A DNA stretch of 63,458 nt from Nemertoderma westbladi. Taxonomy: Eukaryota > Animalia > Xenacoelomorpha. The position numbers and the translations under genes are program-made. Of the stretch, positions 1,233 through 61,727 are shown one piece after another. The notes under the pieces are model-generated. The model saw only the letters and a program-made list of their open reading frames with translations. It ran no database searches and had not been told where the DNA came from. Numbering within the stretch: position 1 is the first letter of the stretch; the number at the start of each line of letters is the position of its first letter. The stretch lies in assembly GCA_032718475.1 (NCBI GenBank), contig JAUCBJ010001625.1, positions 1-63,458 on the forward strand, given 5' to 3'.

Positions 1233-1233
1233 A

Positions 1234-21038: not shown

Positions 21039-21045
21039 AGATAAG

Positions 21046-24430: not shown

Positions 24431-25051
24431 AAACAGAGGTTAGATGTGAGGAGACTTAGAGTTTTGTCGGCTTTTAGCTCAACTTTGCTCTAAAACCCCT
24501 ACCCATTTGCCTAATGACTTCAGGTTCGCGTAATTTCGCACTGGCTCCTAATCCAAAATTGTGCCGATAAAAAACGAATTCCGGGTAAACTAGCTGCGAG
24601 TCTAAAATACTCACCTTTTCATTTCCCAAACTACATTCCTAAAGAAAATAATGCAGTCGAGAATTAATTCGGTCTAAATAATAGTAGACACGACTACGTA
24701 GAACAAGGCCGGTTTTCTTTTTCAAAAAAATTTATCGGTAGGCTCGCAAGCCTTCCATCCGCTCTTGTCCTCCCCAATTCTAATTTTTATCTATCTGTAT
24801 TCTAGAATTCGCATTCACTGGAGAATCATTTTTCTTAAATTTAAATCCAACTGAATGGATTTGTCTAATAATTTTTGAAAATTGTCTCACTTGTGGGTTC
24901 CAAGTGGAATTACGTTCCTACTGTACACACAATCCCGCTCCTATGTGATACATAAGGGTACTACCCTCCAGGTTCACATATAAAGGAATTCCACCGCTGT
25001 CTCTATCTACAGTGAAGAGGATTACAAATGCACATACATTAATACAAAATA

Positions 25052-29627: not shown

Positions 29628-29708
29628 GTAGAAAGTATTGTCTTCCTCCTCATCCTCGTCCGATGATCCCGATTGATTCGTACAATCCGCATAAAACGTA
29701 CGGATCTC

Positions 29709-32700
29709 TCACGGCGCACGCTTCTTGTAAAGCGCGTCGCATCTAGCCGCTTTATCTAGATGCTCTCGTCGAAAGCGTCTGGTCGGAGTATGACTTGTTG
29801 AGTGAAGTAAAGCGTCGTGGTTACTTCCACACTGAGGACATGTATCGTCGCTCGGGCAATCCTTCCGGACGTGTCCTGGCTTCGTACATCTCCAGCAAGA
29901 ATCCAAAGATCGAATTTGAAGTCTTCTCTCTTCGATTCCTAACTCCCTAAAAGCGCAACATCCACGAAGTTTATGTCCGCTATGGTTTCTGCCGTTCCGC
30001 TCGCAGTATGAGCATCCCACAAAGTCCGCCGGCAACTGTTGTCATGGCTGCGTGGTGCCGATAGGCATCAGAACTTTAGAAGTCTCAGTAGGGGTGGCGT
30101 AGGTAACGGCTTTCGCGTTCGTCAGAAATGGTTTGGTCCGAGTCGGCGCAGAAATAGCTATCCCTTCTGCCGCGATATAGTGATCAGTGTAGTTTGATCG
30201 AGTCTCGATCACGGCCTCCCGTGAAATCAGTTGGTAGACGTCGGTGAGTTTCAAAAGCCCGCCGGCTTCTTCACGCTGGTACTCGATGCGTCGCCATTCT
30301 CGTCGGAGTCGATAATGAAGTCGACCGATTATCCTGATGAGAACCGTCGGTGCGTTTGCGTATTCGAGTTGTCCAATGGACCGTAAAGTCCCTATAGCGT
30401 TTTTGATTTCGTCCGCGAGTCGTAGAAGGTCGATCGGTCTCGAAATGTTGCCTCCTCTGCAGAGGTCTTCTATAATGGATTTAGCCATGGCCACGTTAAC
30501 GCCGTAAATCGAATACAAATGGTCGTACGCCAACTCAAAGGCATCTGGAACACCAATAAAGGTTTCCGCTAATCGTTTCGGCTCACCAGACAGGACTTGG
30601 AGCAAGTAATTAACAGGACTTCTCCGCCGATGTGAAAGCACACTTAGCAATCTGGGACTCTACGTAGTCTACCAGTGTGCGCCAGTGTTTCGCGTTGCCA
30701 GAGAACTTCGGCGGTTGTTGGGCCGGTAATCCGTGTCTAGCCGCAAATTTTGCAATCTCGCTAACCAAATCCAACTGTCCGCGTCCCTGTTCGGTTGCGT
30801 CGTCCAGTCGTTCCCTTCCGTGCATTGTCCGTCGGTAGGAATTATTAACGGGATCTTCTTCTCGATGGGTCAGAGTCTGTCTAGTCTCCTGTTCTCTCCG
30901 TGGTAGTTGATGTTGTTTAGGTTGTTCTAACTCCACGCTGGTTCGTGATCGATCCGACGGTTGCGCTTCGAGTCGTTCTTCGAGTTGAGCTAGTCGGTCC
31001 GTCACAGGTCGTATTATTTTGGCGAGTCTGTTGGTGCTGATCGCTTCCGCTGATCGCTTCCGCTGGTTGCAACGTGGGTTTCTGTTGGGGTATTTCTCGT
31101 GGTGGATTGTCGATGTATGGGTTCGTTAATCTCTCCTCCCGTTTGTAATCAGCCGCCGCTCCAGTATGGAATATTTCCCGTTCCGTAGACTCCGAGGCAC
31201 TGGATGAATCGCTGTCGTCCGTATAAGTTGGTTGGCGGGTTCGCGTATGGCGTATTACTCTTGGTCGAGTTCGTTGTGATCTGGGATCTACGGCTCTCCG
31301 TTGTTCGGTAGGCTCGCAAGCCTTCCACGTAGTCATAGGTCTCGTTAAACATTGGGTGAGAGGTCTAGTAAAAACATCAGAGTTAAGTGCTACTGTAGGT
31401 TTATAAATGACTGGGTTCGCACAGCACGTCACAGGTTTAACTTGTAATGGTTTACTCACCTGTTTTACCGTCATAAACGCAGGTTCGTCTCTCTCTACAA
31501 GTAAACTACGGCTTACAGTAGGTGGACTGCGATCTTACCTGCGAGAATCAGCGATGAAGTCGCTCGTGGCTGCGGAATTGATTCCGACATAACAAACCTA
31601 TTACCTTGCACGGGTGATATTTTCTTCTGTTTTGCAAACATAACCGATTTTAATGGAGTCGTGGGTTTGAGCATAGGAATAACTTGGGGAAAACGTTGAC
31701 AGTAATCCTCGACGAACTCCTCTCCTTGATCTATTGCTCCCAAACTTCATTCCTCGATTTGCTTCTGAATTCCGCGATATCGAGTCTCCATGCAATCCAG
31801 GGCAGACAAGTCATGTCCAGCTCGAGACCTTATAGATCTATCTCTCGTGTCAAGTTCGAGGTCCTCTTGCGCGTTCGCCGCCTTGCGCGATCTGCGATTT
31901 AGTTCGAACTGGAGCTGCATCTCCCTTTCACGTCGATCTGCTTCCTGTTGTTGTGGCGTTAATTCTGCTTCTTGTATAGCTAGTCGAGCGTTAATTTGTC
32001 GCGCCTCCAACTTGGCACGAGCGTCGGATGCTGCTTTCTTCCGTGCTGACTCAGCTGCGTTTACCGCCACAACTCGTGCTAACTCATCAGCTGCTGCCGC
32101 CGCGGCCGCTTCCTCCAATCTTCGCATCTCCGTGGCTTCGAATTCGGCTTGCGCCTTGAGTTGCGCAATTCTCGCCTCGTCCTCTCTATGTTGTTTCTCT
32201 CCCTCGATGGCGATCTGTGCCATCTGCCATTGCGCTTCTTCCTCGACGACTTGTTGTCGGCGTGCGACCTCCTGTTGTTGTCGAGTAATTACAGACGCTG
32301 TCCTACTAATGTCGCCAACGTCGCTCCGCACACTAACGAACGATCTATCCAGTGGTGGAATTTGGTAGGCTCGCGAGCCTTCCGTAGAGAGAACTTCCGT
32401 CGTCCCTCTCGGTACAACTTCCGGTTCTTCGATCAGTACGCCGCATCTACGAAGAAAATAAGTGAGCGTCTCTAACAGTTCTTCTTCCTCTTTGGGTTGT
32501 AACAACGCATCCGAAATTTACTCACCTAGCAGTTGGTCGAGCTGCTCCTGTTGAGCCAGTCTTATTACTGACTTAAACTGAATAAGGCTTTCTCTCGCAC
32601 TTACCAACTTATCAATTATCTTTACCTGAGTAAAGTTGTCGCCACGCAACTCTGCAAGTTTGTGTAAACCTTTAAGTTTATCTACGGAAGCATGTACCCT

Positions 32701-32808
32701 ACATTCTATCCTCACCTGTAAGGTGTAAAACTCGTATCTCGACATCGGGGCGGTTAACTCGCGTAAAACACGAAAACCTTCTCCGAAGTTTCGAGTAATC
32801 TGAGCCAT
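29709..32808 (-). pseudogene. gag: BEL-B gag (Ala/Glu coiled coil, capsid-like region, zinc knuckles)
   Basis: PPKFSGNAKHW, LIRIIGRL..RLRREW and CWRCTKPGHVRKDC..CPQCGSNHDALLH. ATG at 32808. Confidence 0.88.
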
Positions 32809-33939
32809 GTGTCCTCCTATACTCCTAATAACGTTCTCCTGGCTTCCAGTCGAACTTACATTGTCCGGTTCCCGCGATCTGGTCTGCGGGACGGTAAGGA
32901 AATCTTCAATTCTGCCGTCACCACGCGTTGCGGCTTCCGGTATTTCCGTTCAGGGTACCGGCGATGCACGCGGTGTGACATCGGTGGAATCTCGGGTTCT
33001 CCTTCTCGGTTCGTCTACTGTCGATCTGTCCGGGTCGCACGAGTCATAGTCGGTAGGAGGGTATCGAGTCGAATGTGGTGTGTCACTCATGTCTTATTAT
33101 ATACGTCGAGTACAGGTAATAAAAGGTCAAAGTATCAAAATGTCAAACTTACCTTGGTATATATATATATATCATATATATACCCTAACCGGTACAAATA
33201 AAACTAACAAAGTATATAATAAAATATGTAATAATCTAGCCTACCGGCTAAATTTGTACGAATAAGTGAGATAATGGTATACGTTCCCAAAATGTAGATC
33301 AACAAGTACAAATAATAGGCAAAACAGCAACGTCTAATGGGAAAATAAGTACCAACAACACTACTAATTTAGACAGTGAAACCCACAAATTTTGAGTACT
33401 ACTGTGCTTTCTAAGTTTGAACGACACGAGTCATAAAACTTACGCTCCTTTGATCTTCCAGTCGTGCAAATTCCCAAATACAAACAGGACGTAGGTCGTT
33501 CCGTTTTTTGGCGGTGCGGACGAAATTTGTGTCTCCCAAACTTTGCGAAAAGCGGTCTAATCCTCAAAGCGGTCCAGAAATGAGTCCTTGAGTCTTGAAA
33601 AGTCGAAGGTGAGAGTTTTACTTCTACTCTACGAAAAATCTTCCTAGGTACCGATACAACTTGGTCTTTAAACCCTATGTACCTTTTCAAGTACCGAAAG
33701 TAACACCGCACACACACAGCATAAAACATTGCTACAAACTAACTATTAGCTAGTCAAATGTTAAATACGAAACTACTAGCTACCCTAAAGGCCTACTGAA
33801 GCAGGGGACGTTCTACAAATTACTAATTTTACTAATTTTAAATTTTTTAAATATCTCCTACATTTACAATAGCTAACAATATATTTATATATCTCACCTT
33901 AAAATGCGCACGCACTTCCGGTCGAGATATTTAATAAAA

Positions 33940-33949
33940 TATACCTCAC
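33940..33949 (-). promoter_or_regulatory. BEL-B non-canonical primer-binding site (self-complementary)
   Basis: Minus strand GTGAGGTATA directly follows the LTR end with no TGG. It is complementary to TATACCTCAC in the LTR (35246-35255 and 22389-22398). Confidence 0.7.
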
Positions 33950-35709
33950 TGTTGTGTCCTCTGCGGTAGGGACTACCCTACGGCCTACAAATCTACTAAT
34001 ATGAAGCTCTAACCGTAAAGTCCAGTAGTATACCGCTTACCAGATCCTAGTAACTATGTATCTTACTGTAAGACTCTAGTAATGAAATGGGCTCGTACAG
34101 TATCTGACAATAAATCCCAGTCCAGGATATCTAAACAAACAGATACAATACACAAACTACTACTGGCGAGGAGCAGAGCCTGGTGTCTATTCTATGTACG
34201 TGAGCGGGTCTAATGCCTACGAACTAGACAAAAGGATACCTGTCCTCTAACCGGTATGGCAGATGTACAGTTACAGTAACAGACCAAACTCACGGGAAAA
34301 CAAACCCCGCGCAGCAAATCCTAACTATCGCTGACAGTCCTAAAATACCGTAACTTGCCGCGCTGTGATTTATATGGTTTATATACGAGCTAGGTGGGTT
34401 ACAGCCCTAGCGTAACAATACTGATCTCCCTGTCGGAATCAGTCTAAAAGGGGTCGTGCCTAATGTAACAATACTGCTGCTCTAGGCAAACAACAGTTTA
34501 ATAACGAAATAATGAAATACTCCCTTTGCCGTAACTAAATATCTGATCTTAATTTTACAAATACGAATAGTAAAGTGCAGATATATTCTTCCTAAAGTAA
34601 TCTAAAGAGCGCTATAACTAGTAGAACTCTAGGGGTAAATATGTTTTAGGGCGTGTGTGTGTGGGTGTGTTACAATAAAATAATTTTGGTGTATATTATT
34701 TTACTAGGTTTTAGTAATTCTCTGACCAAAACAATACCGTGCGCTAGCTACTAAAATAAGCTAGTCGCGTTTTTGTAGAACTTTATACTTACAAATGACG
34801 TCAAAGCTCTCTCCTTCCTATCCACAACTCAACTGGGCAACCATGGTGTTAGTAACTATACCCGTGATCGGCACAAATACCAGATTCTGGTTATAAGATA
34901 AGAAATAGGGGTTAATTGCTACCGTACGCTAGCTGATCTGGTATACAAATTTGATTCTAGAACTTTGTTGCTGCGGTAGTTAGCAGCAAATACCTATCAG
35001 TACGTGGCAAGGCGCAGTAGGATATTAATAAAACCTCCCTAGGCCAAGAGGTGTGCCGGTAGCAGAAATGCTCCTTGCCTGATCAAATAACTAACTTCAA
35101 GCAGGGGGGGGGGGTGTACTAATGTATAGTTCTACAGAACAAACTGGTACCGAGCGGTCAGTTTGCGAATCACTAAATTATGGAACGTATGCTGTCTGTA
35201 CCTAATATGTACTCGCGTACTGACGGACGGCAATAGCTCGCACCTGTGAGGTATACAGGTAACCCAGGGATTTGCAGGACTGACAAAGGGGGTTCTGCCT
35301 AGAACATAGTTATTTGATCCTAAATTTTGCAGCGTTCCAGGACGGCGTCACGCTTACCCTGATCTATAGGTCTTACGTCGGGCAAGAGCGTCAAACAAAG
35401 TCTTACCTTCCTCGGAAGTCGGGCGCTGCATGGCAAGTGGAGTATTTTGTAGGGCGAAGGGGGTGCGCGGTCTAACCTAATGTGGGCGCTAGCGTGTTGT
35501 GGACATCCTTTCCCTGCGTTGCTGACGGCCTAACGGTCTAGGCGGCCATCTTCCTGCTGCTTGGCTGTCCCAAAGTTGGACAAAGGAAAAACATGTTCAG
35601 AAGTTGACAGTGTAATTACAGTTTAGCAAAAGATTTATCAAAACAGATTTACCAAATAGTTTCAACAAGAAACTAATAACGAATGATTAGTGCAAGAAGT
35701 GAGACAAGA

Positions 35710-35876
35710 GTGAATGGTAAGGTGATAACCGAAGGCAAACCAGCCCTTATATACACTAAATCTGGGACATGGAATCCAAACAGAATTTTCCATAGCCTCA
35801 CATTGGAGCAATAAGACGTTCTATGCCCTATGATTGGCCCAGCTCATCGTTTGATACGTTGTACGCACCTCATTGG
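35710..35876 (-). promoter_or_regulatory. Probable Pol II promoter of BEL-B
   Basis: Minus strand has two CCAAT boxes (35872-35876, 35833-35837), TATATAAG (35746-35753) and an Inr-like CCATTC ~30 nt downstream. Confidence 0.6.
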
Positions 35877-35922
35877 TCCACCAATCTGCACCAAATGAAA
35901 ATAAATTGCACCAAAATGCAAA

Positions 35923-35995
35923 CCTCCCGACCGGGATTCGAACTCGTAACCTATCTGTAATGTAACCAACGGCTTAACCATCTGACCACTACGCC
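35923..35995 (-). ncRNA. tRNA-like Pol III cassette in the BEL-B 5' LTR
   Basis: Same A/B-box cassette as 23066-23138. Confidence 0.65.
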
Positions 35996-36364
35996 ATGAG
36001 AGTAACTAGGGGTTTTATGTGTACAAATATGAATAGGCATATTACAATACTGTAACTTAATCAAAATGCGTCGGGTTTTAGAAAGTTTTTACGTGAAACT
36101 ACAAATGCTATCTTATAGTGAAATAATCCATCAATAAGATAAGATAAGATATAGTATTCGGAGATAACTCCAGTTAGAGTAGCGCACAGACAACATTAAA
36201 AATCACAATAAAAGGCACAATGTACCGACCAGGACAAAAGTAAAAAGGTTAACACGGTAAACGAGGCGACTGATACTCTAGCTTAAGTAAATATCAATTA
36301 ATATAAAATATGCAACGCATTGCACAAAGTATTTAAATGAAATAAAAATTCACAACGAAACAAG

Positions 36365-39300
36365 TTACAAATTCCTATAAAAATTGCAGTATTTAGTGAG
36401 ATCGCATTCAATAAGTTTTAGTTTAAATTGCTCCACAGAAATACTGGTAACAATATCATCGATGAGGTCATTCCAGATATTTACAACTCGATTAAAGAAC
36501 ATATTCGATATTGGGTTAGTAGCACATTTAATGCCTCGACTACTACTACTAGGATCGGCATGCTGCATTGCAGCTGCATTTTTAAGAATGCTGTGCCGGA
36601 TTGTCAACAAAATTGCACCGCCACAACTCCCTATCACCCATGACATTTGCTAGATCATCCGCATCTTTAAGGCCAGTGTCCTTTAAGATGCGTCTCAAGA
36701 AAGTCATGGGCTGTCCACCATGCTTATTCACTCCATGAGGCTGCCAAAGTACAAGATTATGCACTGGCTGGTCCTCACGGCGAAAGCAATGTCCTTCAAA
36801 GCGGAGGCGATTTTGTTCTAGTGACAAGCTTGGGGGAACCAATGAGACACCTCCAATGTTATATAGTGTCTGGTTGGAGATGTGTGCATTGTACTTGACA
36901 CAATAAACCCGGCGTAGCATTCTCGTGAATGTGCCATCCAGAGATTTGGTGACCTCAGCAGTTAGAGCCCAGCATGGACTCCCGTAGAGGAGTACTGGAA
37001 CTACTGCTGCTCTAAATAATCGGACCTTAAGTTTCCGATTAATTCTCGGTGCCTCGAAGTTTATATGAGTGGCCACGAGTAATTAAAAGTGATCGCTGGA
37101 AGTATTTTTTGAGGATCAAGGTCTAAAAGATTATGCATTATTTTATAAGTGTACACCAAATCAATATGGATCCTACGTAATTCCAGCGGTTGCAAATTTA
37201 AAAATGAAAGCCTATCTACATAACACATGTCACAATCCAACTTACACCGATAGAATAGTCAACGGGTGAAATAACGTTGAGTCGCTTCAATTTTGTCCGT
37301 AAGGCCGAGAAATGGCGCGCCAGAATAAAATGGGTTCCAGACACAGCTAGCGTACTCTAGAATGGGTCTAACAAACGCTGTATATGCACATAATAATGCC
37401 TGAACGTTAGAAGTTAAAAAGCATCGAAATATTTTATTTATAGACCGATAAGCAGAGGATGTAATAGTCATTACATGTTCTGTAAATTTAAGATCCTTAT
37501 ACACAATCACTCCAAGATCGCGATACGAATTAACATTTGCAAGTTGCGTATCATTAATTCTATATGATGAAGGCATAGCTACATTACCAAGGGTGAGGCT
37601 TTTACATTTTGTTTCTTCTAAATTCAACTGCCAATCACTAGACCAACTGGAAAAAATATCAAGATTTTTCTGCAGTAATATACGGTTATCAATATTACGA
37701 AAAGCACAAAATATCTTGGCATCGTCAGCAAAGAGCCTAGAATTAATACCGGAAAGGTGCGTAGGCATATCATTAATGAAAATAATAAATAATAGGGGAC
37801 CGACACACGAACCCTGTGCTACACCCGATATAACTTTGTGAAAATTAGAAAAGCTTTCACCTATTTTCACTCGCTGAACATGATCAGTTAAATAGCTGGC
37901 AAACCAGCGATGCAAATTACCTGTAATTCCATAACATTTAAGTTTAATTAACAATTTACTAGGCACAACAGAGTCAAATGCCTTGGCATAGTCTGTGTAT
38001 ACTACATCAGTAAAACATTTTGCATTAAGGGCAGTTGCCCAATTATAGGTGCAGTCTAAAAGTTGAGTGGTAGTGCTACGGCCCTTGATAAATCCGTATT
38101 GTTCATCTGTTATTAAATTGTTCCTTTTTAAAAAACCCGACATTTCATGAACTATGATTTGTACTAGAACACGACAGACTGAAGAAGTGATGGAAATAGG
38201 GCGATAATTAGCACCAATGGACGCATCGCCTTTTTTGTAGACAGATGTAATATCAGCCTGTTTCCAACACTTCGGTAATGCACCAGTTAAGAGTGATTCA
38301 TTAAATAATATGCACAATGAATAACATAATTCAAATCTAAATATTTTTAAGGTAGCAACAGGAATGCCGTCTGGCGTATCACCAAATTTATACTTTATTA
38401 ATAACTTTAGATTCAGAAATGCAATCAATGTCAAAAGTTTCGTCAGTTTGCTGGTTAAATACAGGAAATTCACCATTATCTACATTACCGACAGATGAGT
38501 ATTGAGTTATCAGACAATCACATTTTTCTTTGTCAGTGGTTGCTAGGGAACCATCCTTTTTCTTTAAGGGGGCTATAGAGCTACGATTTGTTGTACGGCT
38601 CTTAGCGTATTTAAAGAATGCTTTTTTATTTTTACTAGATAGAATTTTCAATTCTTGTTGCATGTGAAAGGAACGGATTGCCTTGTCAAACTCAAAGCAC
38701 ACACGTCTATACGCTTGTAGATCAGACGTAGACCTATTCCGTAGACGCCAGAGGCATCGTTTGTTTGCTTGTAATTTTCTGATATGTAGGGGTGGCCTAT
38801 AACGATTGCTACATAATTTATAAGTAGGTACATATTTAACAAACAAGTCAGCAATTCTAGATTGAAACGAGTCCCACTTGGAGTTTATATCATTACAATT
38901 TAGGAATTCTGTATCCCAATTTATTTGAGACAACTCTAATTTCAGCGCAGATTTATTCATCTTCGAAAAATTAAACCTAGGTTGTGATGTGAAGGAATTG
39001 CTGGCATGTGGCGCTGACAAAACCAAGGAAAACGAAAAACTGTCATGATCACTATTACCAATAGCAGGTTCACATACTAAGTCTGACACTAATAGAGGGT
39101 CAGTGCACAGTAAAAGATCTAATGTTCGAGATTTGCGCGTTGGAAAGTCAACTAGTTGACAGAGGTTTGACGCAGAGACTGCCTCGATAAATAAATCGCA
39201 CTGTGTATTGTGTCTGTACCCTATATTAGTCCAGTCAATGTCACCAAGGTTAAAGTCACCTAATACGTACACAGGGTAGTCAATTTCAGACAAAAATATA

Positions 39301-39722
39301 AGCAATTCGTTAAGTAGTTTTAAATAAGCATACATTGCATTCCTATCACTATAGCAGGTTCCAGGAGGGCGATAAAAAGATACCATTCTAAATTTATCAT
39401 GAACAGACGTATCAAACGCGACACATTCAATATTGTGACACTTGGGAGGTATAAATACCTTGGCCGGGTGTAGTGCGACTCGACAGGCAAGCATTACACC
39501 ACCTCCATAACCGCGATCTGAACCGCGGTCCCATCGGAATATTTCATATTCCTTCTCAAGTTCATTGCCTGTTATTAACGAATTTACATCATCGTTCTTT
39601 AGAAAAGTTTCACAAATTCCCACTATATCGTGGTTAGATAATATAACTTGCACTTCTGCACGTTTACTTTCGTCACGTACAGATTGTGTATTAGCAAAAT
39701 AACATGATAATTTAGGAACCAT
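36365..39722 (-). pseudogene. CR1-type ORF2 (APE endonuclease plus RT), frameshifted and interrupted by RTE
   Basis: ICETFL, GDFNL, LDLLL, SDH; NYRPISITS, DYAKAFDSV, GVAQGS, LFADD, RGHSYKL and FFNRVVNIWNDL. Confidence 0.93.
36540..37049 (-). mobile_element. RTE-clade LINE, 5'-truncated, with 8-bp TSD
   Basis: TGCCTCGA at 36532-36539 and 37050-37057; (TAG)n tail. Removing it restores CR1 RGHSYKLRGIKC. Confidence 0.93.
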
Positions 39723-39939
39723 ATCGCTATTGTATTACGAGTGGTCAAAGTTTCATTAAGAACGGTGGTTTTGTTAGATAAGTTTACTACTGGGTTACCT
39801 CCTGATCGTTCTCCGCTGTAGCGCGTACTACTGTTGCCGGGTTCTGAAACCTTGGTCCGATAATTGGTGTACGGAAGTTATTTTTCTGACGTTGAGTGTC
39901 GAGTTTTCCAGATGCGGTGTCATAGTCGGCCTCAGAAAT

Positions 39940-41178
39940 TGTAAAAGCTTTTGTGGGATAACTGGTTCGTTTGCTTTGCTGGCCAGTTCCCCCCTGGTCG
40001 CTAGAAATACTCAAAAGGGGATCTGTAGTTAAAATAGTGCAAGCTACCAGCTTATTGGCTGATTTGCGGTATGCAGGTATCTGGGCTCTGTTTAATCGTC
40101 CAACTAGCCTAAGGGGGTTGCGTCATAGCCCTGTTTTTTGTATCTCCCAATAGAATTTGAGTTATCCTGGATTTTAACCAATCCTGAGCTACTGAACTGA
40201 AATTTTCCTATCTCACTGCTCATCCTCTGTGTTGAACGGGAGCTTCGTGGAATAAGTGTAGTTGGTATTCTCGTAGTCACGAGTTTTTCAAAGCCACGAA
40301 AGAACGGCTTTATAGTGTTTTGTGCTTTTCTGCTTTTAACTCAACACTAGTAGGTTTAATTATAAGGACATATATCCTTTAACTGGCAAAACGCACTAAC
40401 CAAACTGCACTACAAACGGCGGACCAGTAAACAAACTGCCTGACGCACGGCATACTACTGACTGCTGAAACATTGCAAACTCATAACAATCAGTGTTCAG
40501 TTGTTGTTTTATACTGCTATTTACTGTCGGTTATTCATTATATTTGTGGATGAATTATTATATTTGGAATAACGATAAATACCCCGAAACCCAATATTCT
40601 TGATATACCGAAGGTAAGAGAGAAAGGTTACAGATAAACGATTGTGACTTATGTTAAAGTGGTTTGAAGTGAATCTAATGTTATTTGATAGACCCTACAT
40701 GAGTCAGCCTGTGTTCCTTTTATATGTGACTAAAATCAGTGAAGATCGGCAGATTAGTGTGCAGTATTGTGCAGCATTGTGTATGCGTGAGTCTGTTAAA
40801 GAAGCATTTCCTAAAGAATGCGCCATATATGTTAATTATAACTAAACCATATCGTTGTGAGTAGTTTAAGTCATAACTCTGTTTATATAGATAGAGCGCC
40901 ACGTCCTAAAGGAACTGTTAATATTCCCCGAAGGTGAATAATATTGTCAGAGATTATATAATACTGTCAGTCGAATAATACATTAGGCTTACATAGCAAT
41001 AAGATTAAACCGTCGAACCCAATCTCCCGGGTATAACCAGCAGGTGAATGATCGCGCACGGATTGGTTTCGACTAGTGTAGTGAATCAAATACTTGTCGT
41101 AGGCAGAAAAGCGATTTAATATCTAGAAGACATCATAATTTGGCGGGTTAAACTGCCAAAGGTCTGAAAGCGCGAACA
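39940..41178 (+). repeat. BEL-C 5' LTR
   Basis: Direct repeat of 60484-61722. Confidence 0.97.
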
Positions 41179-41190
41179 TTAAAGGATATA
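41179..41190 (+). promoter_or_regulatory. BEL-C non-canonical primer-binding site (self-complementary)
   Basis: TTAAAGGATATA directly follows the LTR end and is the exact reverse complement of TATATCCTTTAA at 40371-40382 (and 60915-60926). Confidence 0.75.
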
Positions 41191-41224
41191 GCTTCTTTAT
41201 TGCAGTAAGCAATAAAGTTGAAAG

Positions 41225-41372
41225 TACCGGTCAACCGGTAAACCTGAACGGTACATCTGTAGGTCAGTAGGCCCAATTGCAAGAACCGGTACTGCTGTAG
41301 GCCCGTAGGTCCAACTGCAAGAACCGGTACTTCTGTAGGTCCGTAGGCCTAACTGTCCTAACCGGTACTTCC
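41225..41372. repeat. ~37-39-bp tandem repeat in the BEL-C leader
   Basis: CTGTAGGYCCGTAGGYCCAACTGCAAGAACCGGTAC, ~3-4 copies. Confidence 0.75.
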
Positions 41373-43138
41373 CGTATAAGTACATTAGTATTATTCGATT
41401 TGATTGTTGTATACTGGTAGGCTGTTTAAGAGATTAGGGACTGTACACCCCTTGTTTCTTTTGGAGCTTACTTATTTCTGTCAGTTTTATTTGTTAGTAG
41501 GCCAGTATTGAACAGAAGGCGTGTAAACCTGATCAGATTGTACAGACAATTTGTAGGCTGAGCTGTTGTCTGATTGCTGTTAGGTCTGAACGGATTGCAG
41601 TGTGTGTAGAGCAACTGTCTGGTTGAGTACGGTTAGGAAGTAGGGGCAGCGAACGCTGTAAGGTAAACCCCCAGCTAAAGAATAAGTCGTACTACTGGGT
41701 TAGAACGCATACTGCCTAATCATTTCGGAGTCTGCATATACCGTAGTTTGTTTAGGCTTGATGGTAGTCTGTCGGTATTTGGTCTGCATTTTGTTTGAGT
41801 AGTTTGTACGTGTAGCGTAATATTTATTATTCAGAGTTTATGCGATTATTCGCAACATTCATATTCCCCAAGTTTGTTCCTACAGTAATTGTGTTTGTTA
41901 TACATACCGTTATAGTTAAATTAACCCCGGTACTACACGGGCTGCTTGGCGTAGGTAAAGACTGGTGATTTTGTGCACCGGTTACTCCAGCAGATGCCGT
42001 GGTTCTTTTAGCTGTTCAAGTATATGTAACTACTGATTATCTGTTGTACAAGTACTCGTACCTAATTTAGGGTTTAGTGTACAGTGCTTTCCGAAAGTAA
42101 TTATTGTAGGCATTATATTTGTGTTGTAAAGTGGTTGATAGGCACGTTCGATTAGCTCTATTAACTTCTAGGTAGGAACACTCCGTGATACATAACGTAG
42201 AACCTATAGCGATACGGCCATAGGTCGTCAGGCGGTGGTATTTTCCTATCTAGACAACGCAGTGTATTTACTACTACTTATTATTTTCAAATACCGTAGT
42301 ACCCTGTCCGTTGTAATAACCAGATTCTAACCCTTTGTTAGGCTGGTTTGTAGACTTCTTGTAAAATTACCCTAAAAATTCGTATTTTGTGTTTTTGTAA
42401 ATTTTTGTGTTTATTTAGAGATTGTAATCTCAACCCGAATTGTACGTAATTTGTAGTATTAAGTAACTTAGGTAAATTAGAATTATTTGTTTTAGTGTCC
42501 TATAAGTAACACTCCACTGAAAGCGTACCGCTTTGTGCAGTGATTAACCCCAGAAATAATAACATTTATTTCAAATATTGCCAAAACCCATTAAACGGGT
42601 ACATATATTATAAATCAAATCTAACGATTTATAAATAGTAGGCCTACCATATAACCATTAGGTCTCAATATCAGTTGGACTACTGCTCAAATAACGGTAA
42701 TAAAGTAAGTAAAGTAACCAAGTAACCTTAAAGTACAGAAATTCAATTATTTAAAAATAATTGATATACCGGTATTTACGATAGGACTATTATCTTTATT
42801 TCTGTAAATTTAGGCTGAAATTATACTGGTACTTGTAATTAATTCTAGTCCAGAATTATATATACTACAAACTGTAAGCTGTATACCGGTATTCCCAATA
42901 GGCCTATTATATATTTATATATTTGTGCTAAAATTATACCGGTATTCTGAGATAAACCTAGTCTGTAATAATACTTATATATAATATAAGCATACCGGTA
43001 TTCTAATATATTATATATATATCACTCTACATTGAGTAGCAATATCGGTAATTAATTACTAGGCTAGTAGTTAATACTTAACTACTAGACTTGCTTAGAC
43101 TGTAATATAGCAGTAGGCATTCAACTGTATATACAAAT

Positions 43139-44587
43139 ATGTCTGATACTAAGCAGAACCTGTCAGACAGTCTATTAGATGTAACTATCTGCAACTCGGA
43201 TAGAGGTGTAGAACCCTCTAGTCGTAAGTCCAGTTCACCTCCCACTGTGAGGAAGGTCATCCCTCCAGTAGTAATAACAGAACCTAGGCTAGTCCAACAT
43301 CGTAGGTCTATCATAGGCACCCGAGCTCAGGTCAAGCGGGACCAAGAAGCAGCGGAACAGCAACAACCCGCGAGTCAAGAACTTATAACTCAGCGGCCCA
43401 GCAGCTCCAGTAGTGAGGATACTGTAGAGCTGACACCCGAGCGCGGAGCAGAGATGACGGATGCGGTTTATACGGATCCCCTTCTCATCCTTCCTGCAGC
43501 CGTACTCACTAGGTTATTGATCGCGGTGGAAGAACACCAGATCGATTGGGCGAGAAGTCAACGACCAACTAGAGATAGTTATGCGGGATACACGAGTGAA
43601 GAACTGAAGTCTATTGTCGAGTCACAATGGAACTTCCCCGGACCCGGACTCCCGTTTGATTTATCAGAAGCTGCCTGGGAAGACATACACCGGATGGGAG
43701 TAGCCAAGGAAACCATCGATCCAGCTGTATGGAAGAGGTCCGCAGCCGGATACGCACAAGGATTCTTCAGCTCTATGGAGCGAGTAGAAAAACAACTGTT
43801 TCAACAACCTCAAGGACCTCAAGAGCAGGGATCGCTGCTTTATCAAGTTAGAGAAAGAGTTCTGCGAATTAGGCTAATCTTATCCGCCTTTGAGGAGGCT
43901 TCTAAAAGAAGACAAGACACGTCGTTGCAAGTTGCCGTGAAGACTTGGTTTCAACGAGTGAGACGCCAGGTTCAAGGAGCAGCTCAGTGGAAAGCTCAGT
44001 TGGAGGAGCGCTCAACCCATGGAGAATCAACCGACGCTACTTTTTCCCAAGTGGAAAGTGAAGCGACGGCAGAGAAACCACATAAGAAGGATGCCATTGA
44101 CATCTATCTGTCAGACTATCAGCGCTTTGTAGGAGACGCAGAGTTGAGGAGAAGGTTAGAGGGACTTAGCCCTAATAGCGAAGGAGCCAAACTTGTGTTG
44201 GATGCAATTGATGTAGATAGGTTAGCGGCGAACCAAGCTAAATTCGATGAACAACTCCGCATCGCTAGAGAAAGGGAAGAACAAGTAAAGAAAAAACGTA
44301 TAGAAGACAGAAAGGCAGCGGCAGTAGCAGCAGCAGTGGCATCTGCAGAGGCTGAAAGAAAAACGGCAGCGGCAGAGGCAAAAGCGGCAGCGGCAGAGGC
44401 AGCGGCAGAGGCAAAGGCAGCAGCCGAAGCGGAAAGAAAGGTGGCGGAGGCAGTGGTAGAAGCAGAACGGAGAGCGGCTGAAGAAACCAACCAATTAGAA
44501 TTGGAAAACATTCAAGAGAATCAAGACTGCATAAACAATAATAACATAAACAAACTGCTAAGCAGAACCTGTCAGACAGTCTATTAG
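43139..44587 (+). CDS. gag: BEL-C gag N-terminus, copy 1 (ends at duplication junction)
   Basis: ATG at 43139; Ala/Glu/Lys coiled coil similar in character to BEL-B gag. Confidence 0.75.
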   Translation: MSDTKQNLSDSLLDVTICNSDRGVEPSSRKSSSPPTVRKVIPPVVITEPRLVQHRRSIIGTRAQVKRDQEAAEQQQPASQELITQRPSSSSSEDTVELTPERGAEMTDAVYTDPLLILPAAVLTRLLIAVEEHQIDWARSQRPTRDSYAGYTSEELKSIVESQWNFPGPGLPFDLSEAAWEDIHRMGVAKETIDPAVWKRSAAGYAQGFFSSMERVEKQLFQQPQGPQEQGSLLYQVRERVLRIRLILSAFEEASKRRQDTSLQVAVKTWFQRVRRQVQGAAQWKAQLEERSTHGESTDATFSQVESEATAEKPHKKDAIDIYLSDYQRFVGDAELRRRLEGLSPNSEGAKLVLDAIDVDRLAANQAKFDEQLRIAREREEQVKKKRIEDRKAAAVAAAVASAEAERKTAAAEAKAAAAEAAAEAKAAAEAERKVAEAVVEAERRAAEETNQLELENIQENQDCINNNNINKLLSRTCQTVY

Positions 44588-45947
44588 ATGTAACTATCTG
44601 CGACTCGGATAGAGGTGTAGAACCCTCTAGTCGTAAGTCCAGTTCACCTCCCACTGTGAGGAAGGTCATCCCTCCAGTAGTAATAACAGAACCTAGGCTA
44701 GTCCAACATCGTAGGTCTATCATAGGCACCCGAGCTCAGGTCAAGCGGGACCAAGAAGCAGCGGAACAGCAACAACCCGCGAGTCAAGAACTTATAACTC
44801 AGCGGCCCAGCAGCTCCAGTAGTGAGGATACTGTAGAGCTGACACCCGAGCGCGGAGCAGAGATGACGGATGCGGTTTATACGGATCCCCTTCTCATCCT
44901 TCCTGCAGCCGTACTCACTAGGTTATTGATCGCGGTGGAAGAACACCAGATCGATTGGGCGAGAAGTCAACGACCAACTAGAGATAGTTATGCGGGATAC
45001 ACGAGTGAAGAACTGAAGTCTATTGTCGAGTCACAATGGAACTTCCCCGGACCCGGACTCCCGTTTGATTTATCAGAAGCTGCCTGGGAAGACATACACC
45101 GGATGGGAGTAGCCAAGGAAACCATCGATCCAGCTGTATGGAAGAGGTCCGCAGCCGGATACGCACAAGGATTCTTCAGCTCTATGGAGCGAGTAGAAAA
45201 ACAACTGTTTCAACAACCTCAAGGACCTCAAGAGCAGGGATCGCTGCTTTATCAAGTTAGAGAAAGAGTTCTGCGAATTAGGCTAATCTTATCCGCCTTT
45301 GAGGAGGCTTCTAAAAGAAGACAAGACACGTCGTTGCAAGTTGCCGTGAAGACTTCGTTTCAACGAGTGAGACGCCAGGTTCAAGGAGCAGCTCAGTGGA
45401 AAGCTCAGTTGGAGGAGCGCTCAACCCATGGAGAATCAACCGACGCTACTTTTTCCCAAGTGGAAAGTGAAGCGACGGCAGAGAAACCACATAAGAAGGA
45501 TGCCATTGACATCTATCTGTCAGACTATCAGCGCTTTGTAGGAGACGCAGAGTTGAGGAGAAGGTTAGAGGGACTTAGCCCTAATAGCGAAGGAGCCAAA
45601 CTTGTGTTGGATGCAATTGATGTAGATAGGTTAGCGGCGAACCAAGCTAAATTCGATGAACAACTCCGCATCGCTAGAGAAAGGGAAGAACAAGTAAAGA
45701 AAAAACGTATAGAAGACAGAAAGGCAGCGGCAGTAGCAGCAGCAGTGGCATCTGCAGAGGCTGAAAGAAAAACGGCAGCGGCAGAGGCAAAAGCGGCAGC
45801 GGCAGAGGCAGCGGCAGAGGCAAAGGCAGCAGCCGAAGCGGAAAGAAAGGTGGCGGAGGCAGTGGTAGAAGCAGAACGGAGAGCGGCTGAAGAAACCAAC
45901 CAATTAGAATTGGAAAACATTCAAGAGAATCAAGACTGCATAAACAA
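43149..45947. repeat. Tandem duplication, offset 1409 bp
   Basis: 43149-44538 is repeated at 44558-45947, with a 19-nt filler between copies. Confidence 0.95.
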
Positions 45948-46692
45948 ACAGTTAACAGCTAGTAATATGCAGATGATGAATCGATCTACTCCCAAACGAC
46001 AAGGTTATACATCATCTGAGGAAGGCGATACCACCGATACTGAAGGCAAAGGAAATAGATCTCGTCTAAGTAGACGTAAAAGAACATTCCACCGTCAGAA
46101 ATTGCCTGATTTGCCTCCAGCTGTTAGAAGGCAACTAAATAGCACCAACTTAGGTAGTACAGAACCCACAGACCAAATAATTAAAATCGAAAGACTCCCT
46201 ACTATAGTAGATGAGCCTGAAATAATTAGGCCTGTTCTTGAAATCACCCCTACTGTGATAGACACACCTGTGCTCCCTGAAATAACCGCTAAATTCCCTC
46301 TGCATAGCACTAAGCTACCTGTGCCCCGTAGAACTGCCCAGGCGACAGTTCAGGTCCTGGACCCCGAGCGAAATATTCATAATTTGTCGCCCGTTGTCCC
46401 TCGTCCGCCCGCTACATCGTTGGCGACTCCCGCTTCGGCGGTCGAATGGGTGGACGAGAGACGGCGGGGGATGGATATCCTGCTCGGGCAGATGCAGGAG
46501 ACTGTCCAGCAATTTAAGGGCACGGTAAGGGAAAGTAGACTAGAGTTGCAAGAAGTGCAGCAAAGTATCGCGCTAGAGCGCGATACCCAAAGAGGTGAGG
46601 TCTCTATAGGGGTGTCGCGAACAGGCGGCGGCGGGCTCGTGAGGGTCTGGGGGCACGTTAAATCCTCTAGTATAGTGCAAGGGAGTTACTGA
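44656..46692 (+). CDS. gag: BEL-C gag N-terminus, copy 2 (runs into the solo-LTR-like insert)
   Basis: Nearly identical to copy 1, then continues until the insert at 46613. Confidence 0.75.
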   Translation: MRKVIPPVVITEPRLVQHRRSIIGTRAQVKRDQEAAEQQQPASQELITQRPSSSSSEDTVELTPERGAEMTDAVYTDPLLILPAAVLTRLLIAVEEHQIDWARSQRPTRDSYAGYTSEELKSIVESQWNFPGPGLPFDLSEAAWEDIHRMGVAKETIDPAVWKRSAAGYAQGFFSSMERVEKQLFQQPQGPQEQGSLLYQVRERVLRIRLILSAFEEASKRRQDTSLQVAVKTSFQRVRRQVQGAAQWKAQLEERSTHGESTDATFSQVESEATAEKPHKKDAIDIYLSDYQRFVGDAELRRRLEGLSPNSEGAKLVLDAIDVDRLAANQAKFDEQLRIAREREEQVKKKRIEDRKAAAVAAAVASAEAERKTAAAEAKAAAAEAAAEAKAAAEAERKVAEAVVEAERRAAEETNQLELENIQENQDCINKQLTASNMQMMNRSTPKRQGYTSSEEGDTTDTEGKGNRSRLSRRKRTFHRQKLPDLPPAVRRQLNSTNLGSTEPTDQIIKIERLPTIVDEPEIIRPVLEITPTVIDTPVLPEITAKFPLHSTKLPVPRRTAQATVQVLDPERNIHNLSPVVPRPPATSLATPASAVEWVDERRRGMDILLGQMQETVQQFKGTVRESRLELQEVQQSIALERDTQRGEVSIGVSRTGGGGLVRVWGHVKSSSIVQGSY

Positions 46693-47652
46693 AGGCCCTC
46701 GTGTCTTGCGAACCATGAATTGACATGGTGCCGTGGTACCGTCTAGTCGGCCTGTTGCCGTACTGCCAGTCCTGTACACAGTAGGGGTGGTGGCATAGTG
46801 TGATCTGTGGTTTGTGTGTGTACGTAGTATACGTGAGTGTGTGTATGGCCACTGCGAGTGAGTGTGGGAAACCTTGCCGGTTGGTTCAGTCGCCGCCGGT
46901 TATTAGTAGGACCATATCTTTACTGCGCCCCAGCATACTTTGTGCACACAAAGTTATTTTGCCCTGACGGCAAAATAAGGTACTCTCGACTCTTTAACAG
47001 TCGATACAATTTTGTCCCCTCTGATTTCGTCCCCGATTTTGTCTATTCCCGATTATGTCTTCTGTGTGTGCATGGTATGTGTCCGATTTTGTGTCTACCG
47101 TAGTGTACTCGATTTCGTGAGCATCTATTGAGTACATGTGTACAGTGACTGGTAAGTGGTGACTTGTTCTTAGCTTAGCTTTTAAGCTAGTCAGTATTGT
47201 TGGTGGAACCGACTTCCCCTCAATACTGCCGGCGAGGCGGGTGAAAACGGTCAATATTCCATGCTGGGTAGCGCAAGCCCACATGGGACAAGACCGTCGG
47301 TTTGGCTCAAGGGCGACCTTGATGCTCGATCGCTATCGACTGGTCCACCCGCCGGTTGACTCTCTGAGTTGGCTCAATGTACAGTCAGGCCACAGTAAGT
47401 TGACAGTAGGCGAACTTTGAGTCGCCGTTCGGCTACACACGACGAGCTGTGCCGGTGTGATCGGGGGATTGAAAATTGAACCCGGGAAGCATCGGGCTAC
47501 CCTCCGGCCCGGTCTGATAAAAACGGAGTCGGACTGGCCCCAAGGGTAGTGGAAAAGCGTCCGCCTCGTGGGTGCGCCTCGGGGAGGAGCCCAGAAGGAC
47601 GTAAGCGAAATTAGTAAATACCCAAAGGGGTATACCACCACCCTCTGTAACA
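46613..47652 (-). mobile_element. Solo-LTR-like insert in BEL-C gag (1040 bp)
   Basis: Non-coding block bounded by TGTCGC...GTAACA that interrupts gag. AGTAAA on minus. No clean TSD. Confidence 0.5.
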
Positions 47653-50600
47653 ATGTGTCAACCTGTTAGGTCTGAAGTAACACATGCGCAAGGTGTGGAG
47701 CCTACATGCATTTATACTGCTAGCGAAGTAGAAACTCCTATTGTGAACCCTATTAAGGGTAATTATAGACCTGTTGATAATGACATTCCCTATAGACCTG
47801 ATCATAATCCGAGAAATTTATATACCGATAACTCGATATTAAATAACACGATGGCCCAAGAAAGTTTTACGCGTCAAATGGCTAGAACCGAAGCCCGGCA
47901 AGCGGTAAAGGTTGGAGAGATCGTCAAGTTCAATGGAGATGAGATGAAATGGTTACTTTTTAATGAATATTACAAAGATAACATACAGAACTCTGTACTG
48001 TCTAACGGAGAGAAACTTAGATTCCTCATCGAATGTTTGGAAGGACCTCCCAAGTCAATGGCGTTAAAATTTATTGGACATCCAGATGGATTAAGACAAG
48101 TTTGGGATACACTAAACATCAGGTATGGTAATAGGACTAACATAGCTAGGTATTTATATGCGAAATTAATGGCGCCCCGAAAGTTTCTTAGCAGCGGGAT
48201 TATAGAGTTTTCCGATGAGATTCAGGAGATCTGTAGACAACTAGATTGGTTAGGTAAGTCTCATGAATACCAGAATTCTATGGTTGTAGGAGCCTTAGCA
48301 TCTACTTTGCCCAAGGGTGGAGTAGGTACACGCTGGGACAAGAAGGTGTTATATATGATGGAACAACAACAACGAGACCCTACCATGGCAGATTTCATGT
48401 CATTCCTGGATGGAGAAGTGAAATTGCAACTCCTCAAGCAATCCAGAGAGAAGACACCGGAAAGTAAGGTAAGTGAGAAACCCGTTTCTAGGAGAAGGGT
48501 AATACCAGTATGTTATACCGACGACGGTGAAAGACAAACTTCTCAAGGAGAGGACAGCGGGAAAGACACTGACAGATCTTATGTCAATAAAATGCCTAAA
48601 GATCAGGTAAGTAAATCCAAGTCTCGACCCAATGACAGAAGGGAACCGGTACAAAAAACCCCTCCTACGTCTCCTAAAAGAATTCAGGTGAGAAAGCCCG
48701 AGGAAAGAACAAGTGTGCACCACACAGCACATGTTAAAGTAAGTAACATCAAGCCCAAATGTGTGCTGTGCGATGGGCCCCACCGTTTAAATGCGTGTGA
48801 TAAATTCCTGAGGAAATCACTAAAGGATAGACGTGAAGTCATGTGGGATAAGCGGTTGTGTTATAATTGCCTCAGACGAGGACACCAACGGCGAACCTGT
48901 AACTCTGACGCAAGGTGTGCAAAGTGCGGCGCAAAACATCATATCTTGTTGCACACGGAATTCGAACAAAACAGTCCGAATCAGGTAAGTGATTCCGAAC
49001 TACATGTCCAATTCAGTGATGTAAACGACACTGATCAATCTGAGATGGAAGGATTCTATACAGACGAGATCTCCGACGAAAACGAATCCTGTTACTTGAT
49101 AAATACCGCAGTGTATCGAGCACTCACATATGAAAAGGATACAGACAGCGACCTCACTCTAACTACTTCTGAACGACAACCGTCTTGGAAAGAGCCATCT
49201 TCCAATGTAGGGATTAGAGAATTTCCTGTGGTACAGGTAAGGGTTCACGGACCTAAACGGAGTTATGTAGTGAACGCCCTCCTTGACTCCGGTAGTACAG
49301 GAACATTCATCGACCAAGAGCTAGCCGAAGACATATTTGCTGGACAACCCAAGTTCCGAACTACGCTCAACATGTCAGGCATTATGCAAGTCTGGAAATC
49401 CACAATAACAGCGGATTATTATGTAGGAGCGTTGTCCACCCCACAGGACGAACTAGGAGAACATAGCATCAGGTCAGTGAAAATGGTGGCTATAAAGAAC
49501 TTCGCTACTACTCAAGCAGACCTTTATAATTGGGACGAGGATGAGAGCATCCAACATCTTAACATACCTCGATTCCAGACTGATTATCCTGGAGTGCAAA
49601 TACTCATCGGCCAAAACGCGCATGAGGCGCTGGAGACATTAGAGAAACGGCCTGCTCAACCGCAGCCACTACAGACCTATGCGGTAAGAACTAGAGTAGG
49701 TTGGTACCTTACTGGACCTTCCAGAAAGGCAGCGGCAGTAGCAGCAGCAGTGGCATCTGCAGAGGCTGAAAGAAAAACGGCAGCGGCAGAGGCAAAAGCG
49801 GCAGCGGCAGAGGCAGCGGCAGAGGCAAAGGCAGCAGCCGAAGCGGAAAGAAAGGTGGCGGAGGCAGTGGTAGAAGCAGAACGGAGAGCGGCTGAAGAAA
49901 CCAACCAATTAGAATTGGAAAACATTCAAGAGAATCAAGACTGCATAAACAAACAGTTAACAGCTAGTAATATGCAGATGATGAATCGATCTACTCCCAA
50001 ACGACAAGGTTATACATCATCTGAGGAAGGCGATACCACCGATACTGAAGGCAAAGGAAATAGATCTCGTCTAAGTAGACGTAAAAGAACATTCCACCGT
50101 CAGAAATTGCCTGATTTGCCTCCAGCTGTTAGAAGGCAACTAAATAGCACCAACTTAGGTAGTACAGAACCCACAGACCAAATAATTAAAATCGAAAGAC
50201 TCCCTACTATAGTAGATGAGCCTGAAATAATTAGGCCTGTTCTTGAAATCACCCCTACTGTGATAGACACACCTGTGCTCCCTGAAATAACCGCTAAATT
50301 CCCTCTGCATAGCACTAAGCTACCTGTGCCCCGTAGAACTGCCCAGGCGACAGTTCAGGTCCTGGACCCCGAGCGAAATATTCATAATTTGTCGCCCGTT
50401 GTCCCTCGTCCGCCCGCTACATCGTTGGCGACTCCCGCTTCGGCGGTCGAATGGGTGGACGAGAGACGGCGGGGGATGGATATCCTGCTCGGGCAGATGC
50501 AGGAGACTGTCCAGCAATTTAAGGGCACGGTAAGGGAAAGTAGACTAGAGTTGCAAGAAGTGCAGCAAAGTATCGCGCTAGAGCGCGATACCCAAAGAGG

Positions 50601-50697
50601 TGAGGTCTCTATAGGGGTGTCGCGAACAGGCGGCGGCGGGCTCGTGAGGGTCTGGGGGCACGTTAAATCCTCTAGTATAGTGCAAGGGAGTTACTGA
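47653..50697 (+). CDS. gag: BEL-C gag core plus protease, fused in frame to duplicated gag N-terminal part
   Basis: KFNGDEMKW, LNIRYGN, three BEL knuckles (CVLCDGPH, CYNCLRRGH, CAKCGAKHHILLH) and ALLDSGS. Junction at 49722. Confidence 0.9.
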   Translation: MCQPVRSEVTHAQGVEPTCIYTASEVETPIVNPIKGNYRPVDNDIPYRPDHNPRNLYTDNSILNNTMAQESFTRQMARTEARQAVKVGEIVKFNGDEMKWLLFNEYYKDNIQNSVLSNGEKLRFLIECLEGPPKSMALKFIGHPDGLRQVWDTLNIRYGNRTNIARYLYAKLMAPRKFLSSGIIEFSDEIQEICRQLDWLGKSHEYQNSMVVGALASTLPKGGVGTRWDKKVLYMMEQQQRDPTMADFMSFLDGEVKLQLLKQSREKTPESKVSEKPVSRRRVIPVCYTDDGERQTSQGEDSGKDTDRSYVNKMPKDQVSKSKSRPNDRREPVQKTPPTSPKRIQVRKPEERTSVHHTAHVKVSNIKPKCVLCDGPHRLNACDKFLRKSLKDRREVMWDKRLCYNCLRRGHQRRTCNSDARCAKCGAKHHILLHTEFEQNSPNQVSDSELHVQFSDVNDTDQSEMEGFYTDEISDENESCYLINTAVYRALTYEKDTDSDLTLTTSERQPSWKEPSSNVGIREFPVVQVRVHGPKRSYVVNALLDSGSTGTFIDQELAEDIFAGQPKFRTTLNMSGIMQVWKSTITADYYVGALSTPQDELGEHSIRSVKMVAIKNFATTQADLYNWDEDESIQHLNIPRFQTDYPGVQILIGQNAHEALETLEKRPAQPQPLQTYAVRTRVGWYLTGPSRKAAAVAAAVASAEAERKTAAAEAKAAAAEAAAEAKAAAEAERKVAEAVVEAERRAAEETNQLELENIQENQDCINKQLTASNMQMMNRSTPKRQGYTSSEEGDTTDTEGKGNRSRLSRRKRTFHRQKLPDLPPAVRRQLNSTNLGSTEPTDQIIKIERLPTIVDEPEIIRPVLEITPTVIDTPVLPEITAKFPLHSTKLPVPRRTAQATVQVLDPERNIHNLSPVVPRPPATSLATPASAVEWVDERRRGMDILLGQMQETVQQFKGTVRESRLELQEVQQSIALERDTQRGEVSIGVSRTGGGGLVRVWGHVKSSSIVQGSY

Positions 50698-51657
50698 AGG
50701 CCCTCGTGTCTTGCGAACCATGAATTGACATGGTGCCGTGGTACCGTCTAGTCGGCCTGTTGCCGTACTGCCAGTCCTGTACACAGTAGGGGTGGTGGCA
50801 TAGTGTGATCTGTGGTTTGTGTGTGTACGTAGTATACGTGAGTGTGTGTATGGCCACTGCGAGTGAGTGTGGGAAACCTTGCCGGTTGGTTCAGTCGCCG
50901 CCGGTTATTAGTAGGACCATATCTTTACTGCGCCCCAGCATACTTTGTGCACACAAAGTTATTTTGCCCTGACGGCAAAATAAGGTACTCTCGACTCTTT
51001 AACAGTCGATACAATTTTGTCCCCTCTGATTTCGTCCCCGATTTTGTCTATTCCCGATTATGTCTTCTGTGTGTGCATGGTATGTGTCCGATTTTGTGTC
51101 TACCGTAGTGTACTCGATTTCGTGAGCATCTATTGAGTACATGTGTACAGTGACTGGTAAGTGGTGACTTGTTCTTAGCTTAGCTTTTAAGCTAGTCAGT
51201 ATTGTTGGTGGAACCGACTTCCCCTCAATACTGCCGGCGAGGCGGGTGAAAACGGTCAATATTCCATGCTGGGTAGCGCAAGCCCACATGGGACAAGACC
51301 GTCGGTTTGGCTCAAGGGCGACCTTGATGCTCGATCGCTATCGACTGGTCCACCCGCCGGTTGACTCTCTGAGTTGGCTCAATGTACAGTCAGGCCACAG
51401 TAAGTTGACAGTAGGCGAACTTTGAGTCGCCGTTCGGCTACACACGACGAGCTGTGCCGGTGTGATCGGGGGATTGAAAATTGAACCCGGGAAGCATCGG
51501 GCTACCCTCCGGCCCGGTCTGATAAAAACGGAGTCGGACTGGCCCCAAGGGTAGTGGAAAAGCGTCCGCCTCGTGGGTGCGCCTCGGGGAGGAGCCCAGA
51601 AGGACGTAAGCGAAATTAGTAAATACCCAAAGGGGTATACCACCACCCTCTGTAACA
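50618..51657 (-). mobile_element. Second copy of the solo-LTR-like insert (part of the 4005-bp duplication)
   Basis: Matches 46613-47652. Confidence 0.5.
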
Positions 51658-61722: not shown

Positions 61723-61727
61723 GAAAT

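Follow-up and report, generated by a model that had tools for sequence, protein, structure and literature searches.

In a 63,458-nt stretch of Nemertoderma westbladi DNA (the whole stretch analysed, hereafter the window), two LTR retrotransposons with BEL/Pao proteins, elements B and C, carry directly past the 5' LTR a short sequence whose exact complement lies within the LTR. The two elements pair with different letters, and neither has a TGG at this position. We consider that both probably prime reverse transcription in the manner of Tf1, with a primer from their own RNA and not with a host tRNA, and judging from the sequences a self-derived primer of any kind is very probable. Self-priming independent of tRNA in a BEL lineage had been put forward in the original prediction on the basis of C, and with the pairing found in both elements it is now the best reading.

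By analogy with Tf1, the RNA would start at the LTR site or upstream of it, and this site would fold onto the primer-binding site located downstream, at a distance of 0.8 kb in C and 1.3 kb in B. RNase H would then cut at the edge of the duplex, leaving a 3'-OH that faces the last base of the LTR. Each cycle would copy the primer back into the primer-binding site, and the two sites would in this way remain complementary even as their sequence drifts. Concerning element C, the RT, RNase H and integrase would be taken from an autonomous relative.

Structure of element C

Element C spans positions 39940 to 61722 on the plus strand (21.8 kb) and is flanked by a 5-bp target-site duplication, GAAAT (39935-39939 and 61723-61727). 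The 5' LTR (39940-41178, 1239 nt, TG...CA) and the 3' LTR (60484-61722) differ at 6 positions over 1239 nt (99.5% identical), and a purine-rich tract (60474-60483, +) lies ahead of the 3' LTR. The second LTR, the TG...CA ends and the duplicated target set the limits of the element independently of the pairing. A gag with DUF1759 (E 8e-14) and zinc knuckles, followed by a DSG protease, is found at 43106-54501 (+). This region is tandemly duplicated, with near-identical duplications of 1390 and 4006 nt (43149-45947 and 45717-53727, 99.8% identity) that may be real or an effect of assembly. After gag-protease, all that is left of the rest of pol is short stretches of the RNase H and integrase tails, which align to elements A and B; C has no RT, no RNase H core and no integrase. 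As C lacks these enzymes, a helper is needed. Element C is a young, non-autonomous, pol-deleted BEL/Pao derivative. Its insertion point lies just beyond the start of a minus-strand LINE ORF (36544-39734); LINE-type endonuclease/RT pieces are also present at 14604-16457 (+) and 754-1233 (+).

Pairing at the LTR edge of element C

The predicted primer-binding site of C consists of the 12 nt at 41179-41190 (+), at offset 0 from the LTR. These are the exact reverse complement of the candidate self-primer at 40371-40382 (+, LTR nt 432-443), a second copy of which is present in the 3' LTR at 60915-60926. The original prediction had described this match, its stop at the LTR edge and the lack of a TGG, and the sequence bears out each of these points: the match begins at the first base past the terminal CA and does not extend beyond 12 nt on either side, and no TGG occurs in the first 30 nt past the LTR, nor in the 100 nt examined.

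We then estimated how often such a match arises by chance. The site at 41179-41190 is the only one among 19294 internal 12-mers of C with a complement in the LTR, and 14 of 79800 12-mers outside C have one. Composition models gave a chance of 2e-4 to 1e-3 for the match, and dinucleotide shuffles of the C LTR reached 12 nt in 3 of 3000 cases at offset 0 and in 5 of 3000 at offsets 0-5. When the RNA was folded with its start assumed at the LTR site, the 12 pairs had probabilities of 0.40-0.75; the first 12 nt are unpaired in the minimum-energy fold, and the ensemble favours pairing.

Concerning local structure, a strong hairpin lies directly 3' of the primer-binding site in both elements (in C at 41195-41217, +, 9 bp, z -3.3; z -3.7 in B). 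Hairpins ahead of the LTR end are weak (in C at 41139-41160, +, 8 bp, z -1.7; z -1.9 in B); they were compared with the U5 stem-loop that is said to stand beside the priming site of Tf1. The AAGGA/TCCTT hairpin that had been proposed at the site in C does exist (5 bp), but it is at chance level (z -1.0), with 26 of 200 shuffles folding equally well. We therefore rejected it as a supporting feature, and it adds nothing to the case for self-priming.

A second case in element B

Because C had been chosen for its match, the fair test is element B. This element lies on the minus strand, has a length of 15.1 kb and is flanked by the target duplication ATAAG (21041-21045 and 36134-36138). Its 5' LTR (33950-36133, 2184 nt) and 3' LTR (21046-23276) enclose an internal region (23277-33939) in which gag-PR-RT-RNase H (Peptidase_A17)-integrase is broken and an extra ORF survives as a remnant. 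The predicted primer-binding site of B (33940-33949, -), again at offset 0, is the exact complement of 35246-35255 (-, LTR nt 879-888), a candidate self-primer that is identical in both LTRs. A TGG was not found at the post-LTR site. Shuffles of the B LTR matched 10 nt in 8 of 3000 cases at offset 0 and in 38 of 3000 at offsets 0-5, and the 10 pairs had probabilities of 0.81-1.0 in an RNA fold whose start was assumed at the LTR site.

The LTRs of B and C gave no blastn match to each other, the gag-protease regions are 23-31% identical, and each primer-binding site matches the LTRs of the other families over only 4-5 nt. Co-variation among relatives had been suggested as a check on self-priming; B, which the original prediction did not cite, repeats this geometry with 10 nt of another sequence, and this represents co-variation between families. 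The geometry is thus present in both testable elements of the window, two families of one host. Element A, whose 5' LTR and primer site are not present in the window, is outside this count. In both B and C the complementarity amounts to at least 10 bp beginning 0-5 nt past the LTR, a criterion by which self-primers are predicted in the available text of PMC6317226.

The C family in host DNA

Four host DNA runs, all in the form of contigs and including X1 and X3, were searched for the C family. The summed depth over C was 1e5-1e6 in X1 and X3 versus ~100 on the flank, a value that is not a copy number, and shows that the family is large and very abundant in host DNA runs. With this abundance, paired changes in natural copies, as well as strong-stop DNA, should be readily accessible. 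As seen at joints and loose ends, sister subfamilies retain a block around the C primer (40344-40385), beyond which their sequences diverge. Across 41140-41235, a single substitution is listed, at 41183, inside the 12-mer, and it accounts for 26% (X1, 38 contigs) and 28% (X3, 26 contigs) of the summed depth. The self-priming model predicts a matching change at 40378, and the variant could count against self-priming; neither 41183 nor 40378 is among the 40 of 585 differences that are listed.

Relatives in other hosts

Scanning metagenomes with the RT-RNase H alignment of A and B, we identified 16 BEL/Pao loci. Seven of these hold an LTR or leader and were tested (L001, L004, L005, L009, L010, L012 and L014); L006 and L008, apparent near copies of L005 and L009, were left out, as were seven others that start too late or lack an LTR. 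In five of the seven tested loci, 10-13 nt of the post-LTR site pair with the exon junction that removal of a GT-AG intron from the LTR would create. The pairing measured 11 nt in L004 (intron 2759-3184, site 3338, span 2759-3348; reached in 1 of 300 shuffles), 10 nt in L005 (7 of 300), 11 nt in L009 (intron 304-467, site 607, span 304-617; 12 of 300), 11 nt in L010 (intron 3384-3557, site 3703, span 3384-3713; 10 of 300) and 13 nt in L012 (intron 6157-6327, site 6503, span 6157-6515; 1 of 300). The count of five was obtained with an acceptor rule relaxed after L004 had been seen; the strict rule, which misses L004, gave three of seven at 11-13 nt (4, 7 and 1 of 300 shuffles). The five loci represent about two lineages and are not independent cases, and the 3' ends of their LTRs were inferred, not fixed by flanks. 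L001 and L014 displayed no junction pairing under either rule. None of the five loci with junction pairing has a TGG at the site, and unspliced complements in the other-host loci reach only 6-9 nt.

Four of the five positive loci have an AATAAA 16-28 nt past the acceptor; neither window LTR (B or C) contains this motif. L012 has a TATA box 35 nt before the donor, a position from which the RNA would start, as in Tf1, close to the beginning of the pairing. The pairing of L012 exceeds those of L009 and L010 by one base on both sides. A GT start after ACA was also observed at the post-LTR sites of L003 (1-90), L002 (56), L007 (124) and L014 (118-280), and in L003, whose donor is off the contig, 8 matching bases directly follow an acceptor-like AG.

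We also considered splicing in the window elements. An intron that would lengthen the match of B or C was rejected, as no junction match touches either primer-binding site. A lariat primer was likewise dropped: the B site ends two bases before an AG that could be an intron end, and C is without such an AG. A wider proposal, that much of BEL/Pao has dropped tRNA priming in favour of a primer formed when an LTR intron is spliced out or, in the long-LTR clade of this host, an unsplit internal primer finished by the element's own exonuclease, seems to us unlikely on present sequences.

Promoter signals and the extra ORF

In C, a TATA-like hexamer (40361-40366, +) lies 10 nt upstream of the LTR site, and an RNA start directed by it would therefore fall downstream of the site. 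A second TATA-like motif begins at 40309, 62 nt upstream, and CCAAT boxes are found at -317, -224 and -193 relative to the site. The clearest TATA box of B (LTR nt 381) has four CCAAT boxes above it and precedes the site by 498 nt, with splice-donor motifs in between. A location of the site at the RNA 5' end, as in Tf1, thus appears doubtful for B, and promoter motifs are equivocal as to whether the primer would correspond to the first bases of the capped RNA.

The poor fit of these motifs to a 5'-terminal primer would be accommodated if an unsplit primer lay far inside the RNA and its 3' end were finished by a 3'-5' exonuclease of the element and not by RNase H. A candidate for such an enzyme is provided by the extra ORF of C, which precedes the 3' LTR (56137-60405, +, 1422 codons stop to stop) and has weakly homologous counterparts in A (4416-7906) and in the remnant of B (23981-24439), with blastp E values of 3e-8 to 9e-5. 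Residues ~680-1000 of the C protein likely form a DEDD-type 3'-5' exonuclease domain, which is likely also present in A; the assignment draws on language-model features and one motif. In the Atlas, the look-alikes of the C residues are 3'-5' exonuclease clusters (0.93, 171 shared features, PF01612 on 50% of members), and 25 of 30 matches fall in the 3'-5' exonuclease set. The corresponding piece of A scored 0.90 with 145 shared features, PF01612 being found on 29% of members. A and C both retain the D-x-E motif, and in both the exonuclease-like domain is followed by zinc knuckles, which are weak matches in Pfam.

On the other hand, the domain gave no match in Pfam or the PDB and no homologue in two homologue searches, and two structure models of the ORF had pLDDT values of 29-30. 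Among the matches listed, the extra ORF has none in the 16 metagenome BEL/Pao loci, yet several of these carry the junction pairing. Furthermore, the DEDDy ORFs of Ty3/gypsy-type elements in bdelloid rotifers are not linked to priming in the available text of PMC5408684. Taking these points together, trimming by an element-encoded exonuclease is an unlikely route to the primer end, and a role of the extra ORF in primer trimming is a guess.

Other functions and other primers

The pairing might be real and selected and yet serve RNA folding, packaging or translation, priming being left to another site or molecule. Long-range pairings between LTR and leader are common in retroelements, and the duplex of C can be extended by 7 further pairs beyond an internal loop. 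An arrangement of this kind does not account for both families ceasing to pair exactly at the LTR edge, with no tRNA site after it, and we regard it as improbable.

A host tRNA half or another small RNA could also be the primer, the LTR complements then being coincidences or copies of the site. In copia lineages half-tRNA priming occurs without a TGG (PMC6317226, in the portion available), and the end of the B primer might be read as a Val anticodon loop. Such a primer would require two separate coincidences, with the frequencies obtained in the shuffles (3 of 3000 and 8 of 3000). In addition, several other post-LTR sequences were found in sister subfamilies of C among the 20 of 37 loose-end rows listed, some of which are 3' LTR flanks, and none of the sequences listed starts with TGG. 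Several different post-LTR sequences within one family would be incompatible with a single tRNA primer. ARAGORN and Rfam detected no tRNA in the window, nor in 33800-43200. Priming by a host small RNA thus has little probability, and Tf1-like self-priming is the reading that we retain.

A nematode BEL element is said to encode its own tRNA-like primer, of which a literature search found nothing. A self-encoded tRNA primer was rejected here, as the tRNA-like or Pol III box A/B-like stretch that we noticed by eye in the B LTR (nt ~125-210; 35920-36010, -) was negative with ARAGORN and Rfam.

Relation to BEL/Pao and to known self-priming elements

B and C display features of the Belpaoviridae (BEL/Pao, Semotivirus): TG...CA LTRs, 5-bp target duplications and a polypurine tract, together with a gag containing DUF1759 and Cys-His boxes and an aspartic protease with DSG. 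The order RT, RNase H (Peptidase_A17), integrase is present, though broken, in A and B and is not present in C. The RT-RNase H segments of A and B had 108 matches at E <= 1e-20, the best all with PF05380, and group with BEL/Pao in an analysis without an outgroup. In a quick tree of 80 rows (A, B and the 78 of 108 matches that cover the segment), A and B form a sister pair (SH-aLRT 97). In a FastTree of 46 rows they fall at another place, on long branches, and their position relative to the splice-junction elements is unstable between the two trees. The best identities are 35-42%, with mollusc, fish and cnidarian proteins among the best matches. Relatives were not found in viral and prokaryote collections, and L017 was rejected as a relative, its 19-nt match being due to chance.

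According to the ICTV description, members of the Belpaoviridae are 4.2-10 kb long, with LTRs of 0.2-1.2 kb and an 18-nt site that pairs with the 3' end of tRNA-Arg or tRNA-Gly (PMC8742986). Unlike these elements, B and C have no TGG past either LTR and no tRNA site, they are 15.1 and 21.8 kb long, and the best RT-RNase H identity is 42%. BEL/Pao elements are described as tRNA-primed, and their replication as poorly understood (PMC8742986). We found no report of self-priming in BEL/Pao in the literature searched, which lacks most subscription journals, repeat-database reports and supplements. The words primer, PBS and tRNA are absent from the available text of a BEL/Pao survey (PMC3118150), as are PBS and tRNA from that of the Sinbad paper. 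Self-priming thus appears to have been described only in retrotransposon groups other than BEL/Pao.

Among these groups, Tf1/Tf2 and Tj1 of fission yeasts, the Tf1/sushi elements and Tcn1 (Ty3/gypsy) share with B and C 10-12 nt beside the 5' LTR that pair with an LTR-internal site, and the lack of a tRNA site (available text of PMC7175516, PMC4600332, PMC5341516 and PMC6317226). In Tf1, the RNA's first 11 bases pair and RNase H cuts between bases 11 and 12 (PMC7175516, in part). B and C resemble Tf1/sushi in that at least 10 nt at the LTR edge are complementary to a site within the LTR, but their proteins are of the BEL/Pao type and not a chromovirus polyprotein, and the two elements are outside the Tf1/sushi group. 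They further differ in the extra ORF, in the length of the LTRs (1.2-2.2 kb), in the 0.8-1.3 kb that separate the site from its partner, and in that the primer as first RNA bases is only a candidate. Moreover, the primer of the BEL/Pao relatives in other hosts would be split by an intron. The original prediction had taken this geometry as defining Tf1/sushi; those elements do share it, but it is not confined to them, as self-priming has been predicted by the same sequence criterion for the copia TAR lineage of plants (Houba and Osr-1; PMC6317226, in part). BEL/Pao is a different superfamily from the TAR lineage, in a host of a different kingdom. Finally, an extra ORF past pol, with a DEDDy-type exonuclease, is found in the bdelloid rotifer LTR elements Juno and Vesta, which the available text of PMC5408684 does not place in BEL/Pao; the ORF in the window has 1422 codons and zinc knuckles.

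If our reading is true, BEL/Pao would be the third LTR superfamily with this mechanism, which is proven for Tf1 and has been predicted for certain copia elements, and this would bear on the order of origin of tRNA priming and self-priming, a question raised in PMC3601003 (in the part available). It would also explain why tRNA-based annotation of such elements gives no primer site. The splice-junction form, if true, would make host splicing a switch in replication.

Element A and other repeats in the window

Element A (3221-14383, -) comprises a 3' LTR (3221-4231), the extra ORF, pol and gag. A LINE piece occupies the place where the 5' end of A would be. A motif of 25-40 nt in the A LTR (3295-3918) recurs in the extra ORF (7678-7717) and in the gag region (14109-14148) of this element. 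In the pol of B, a 12-nt tandem repeat has expanded between RNase H and integrase (26535-26973), giving S/P/D-rich repeats. A further RT fragment (RVT_1) is located at 19030-19940, followed by a 43-nt tandem array at 19938-20549.
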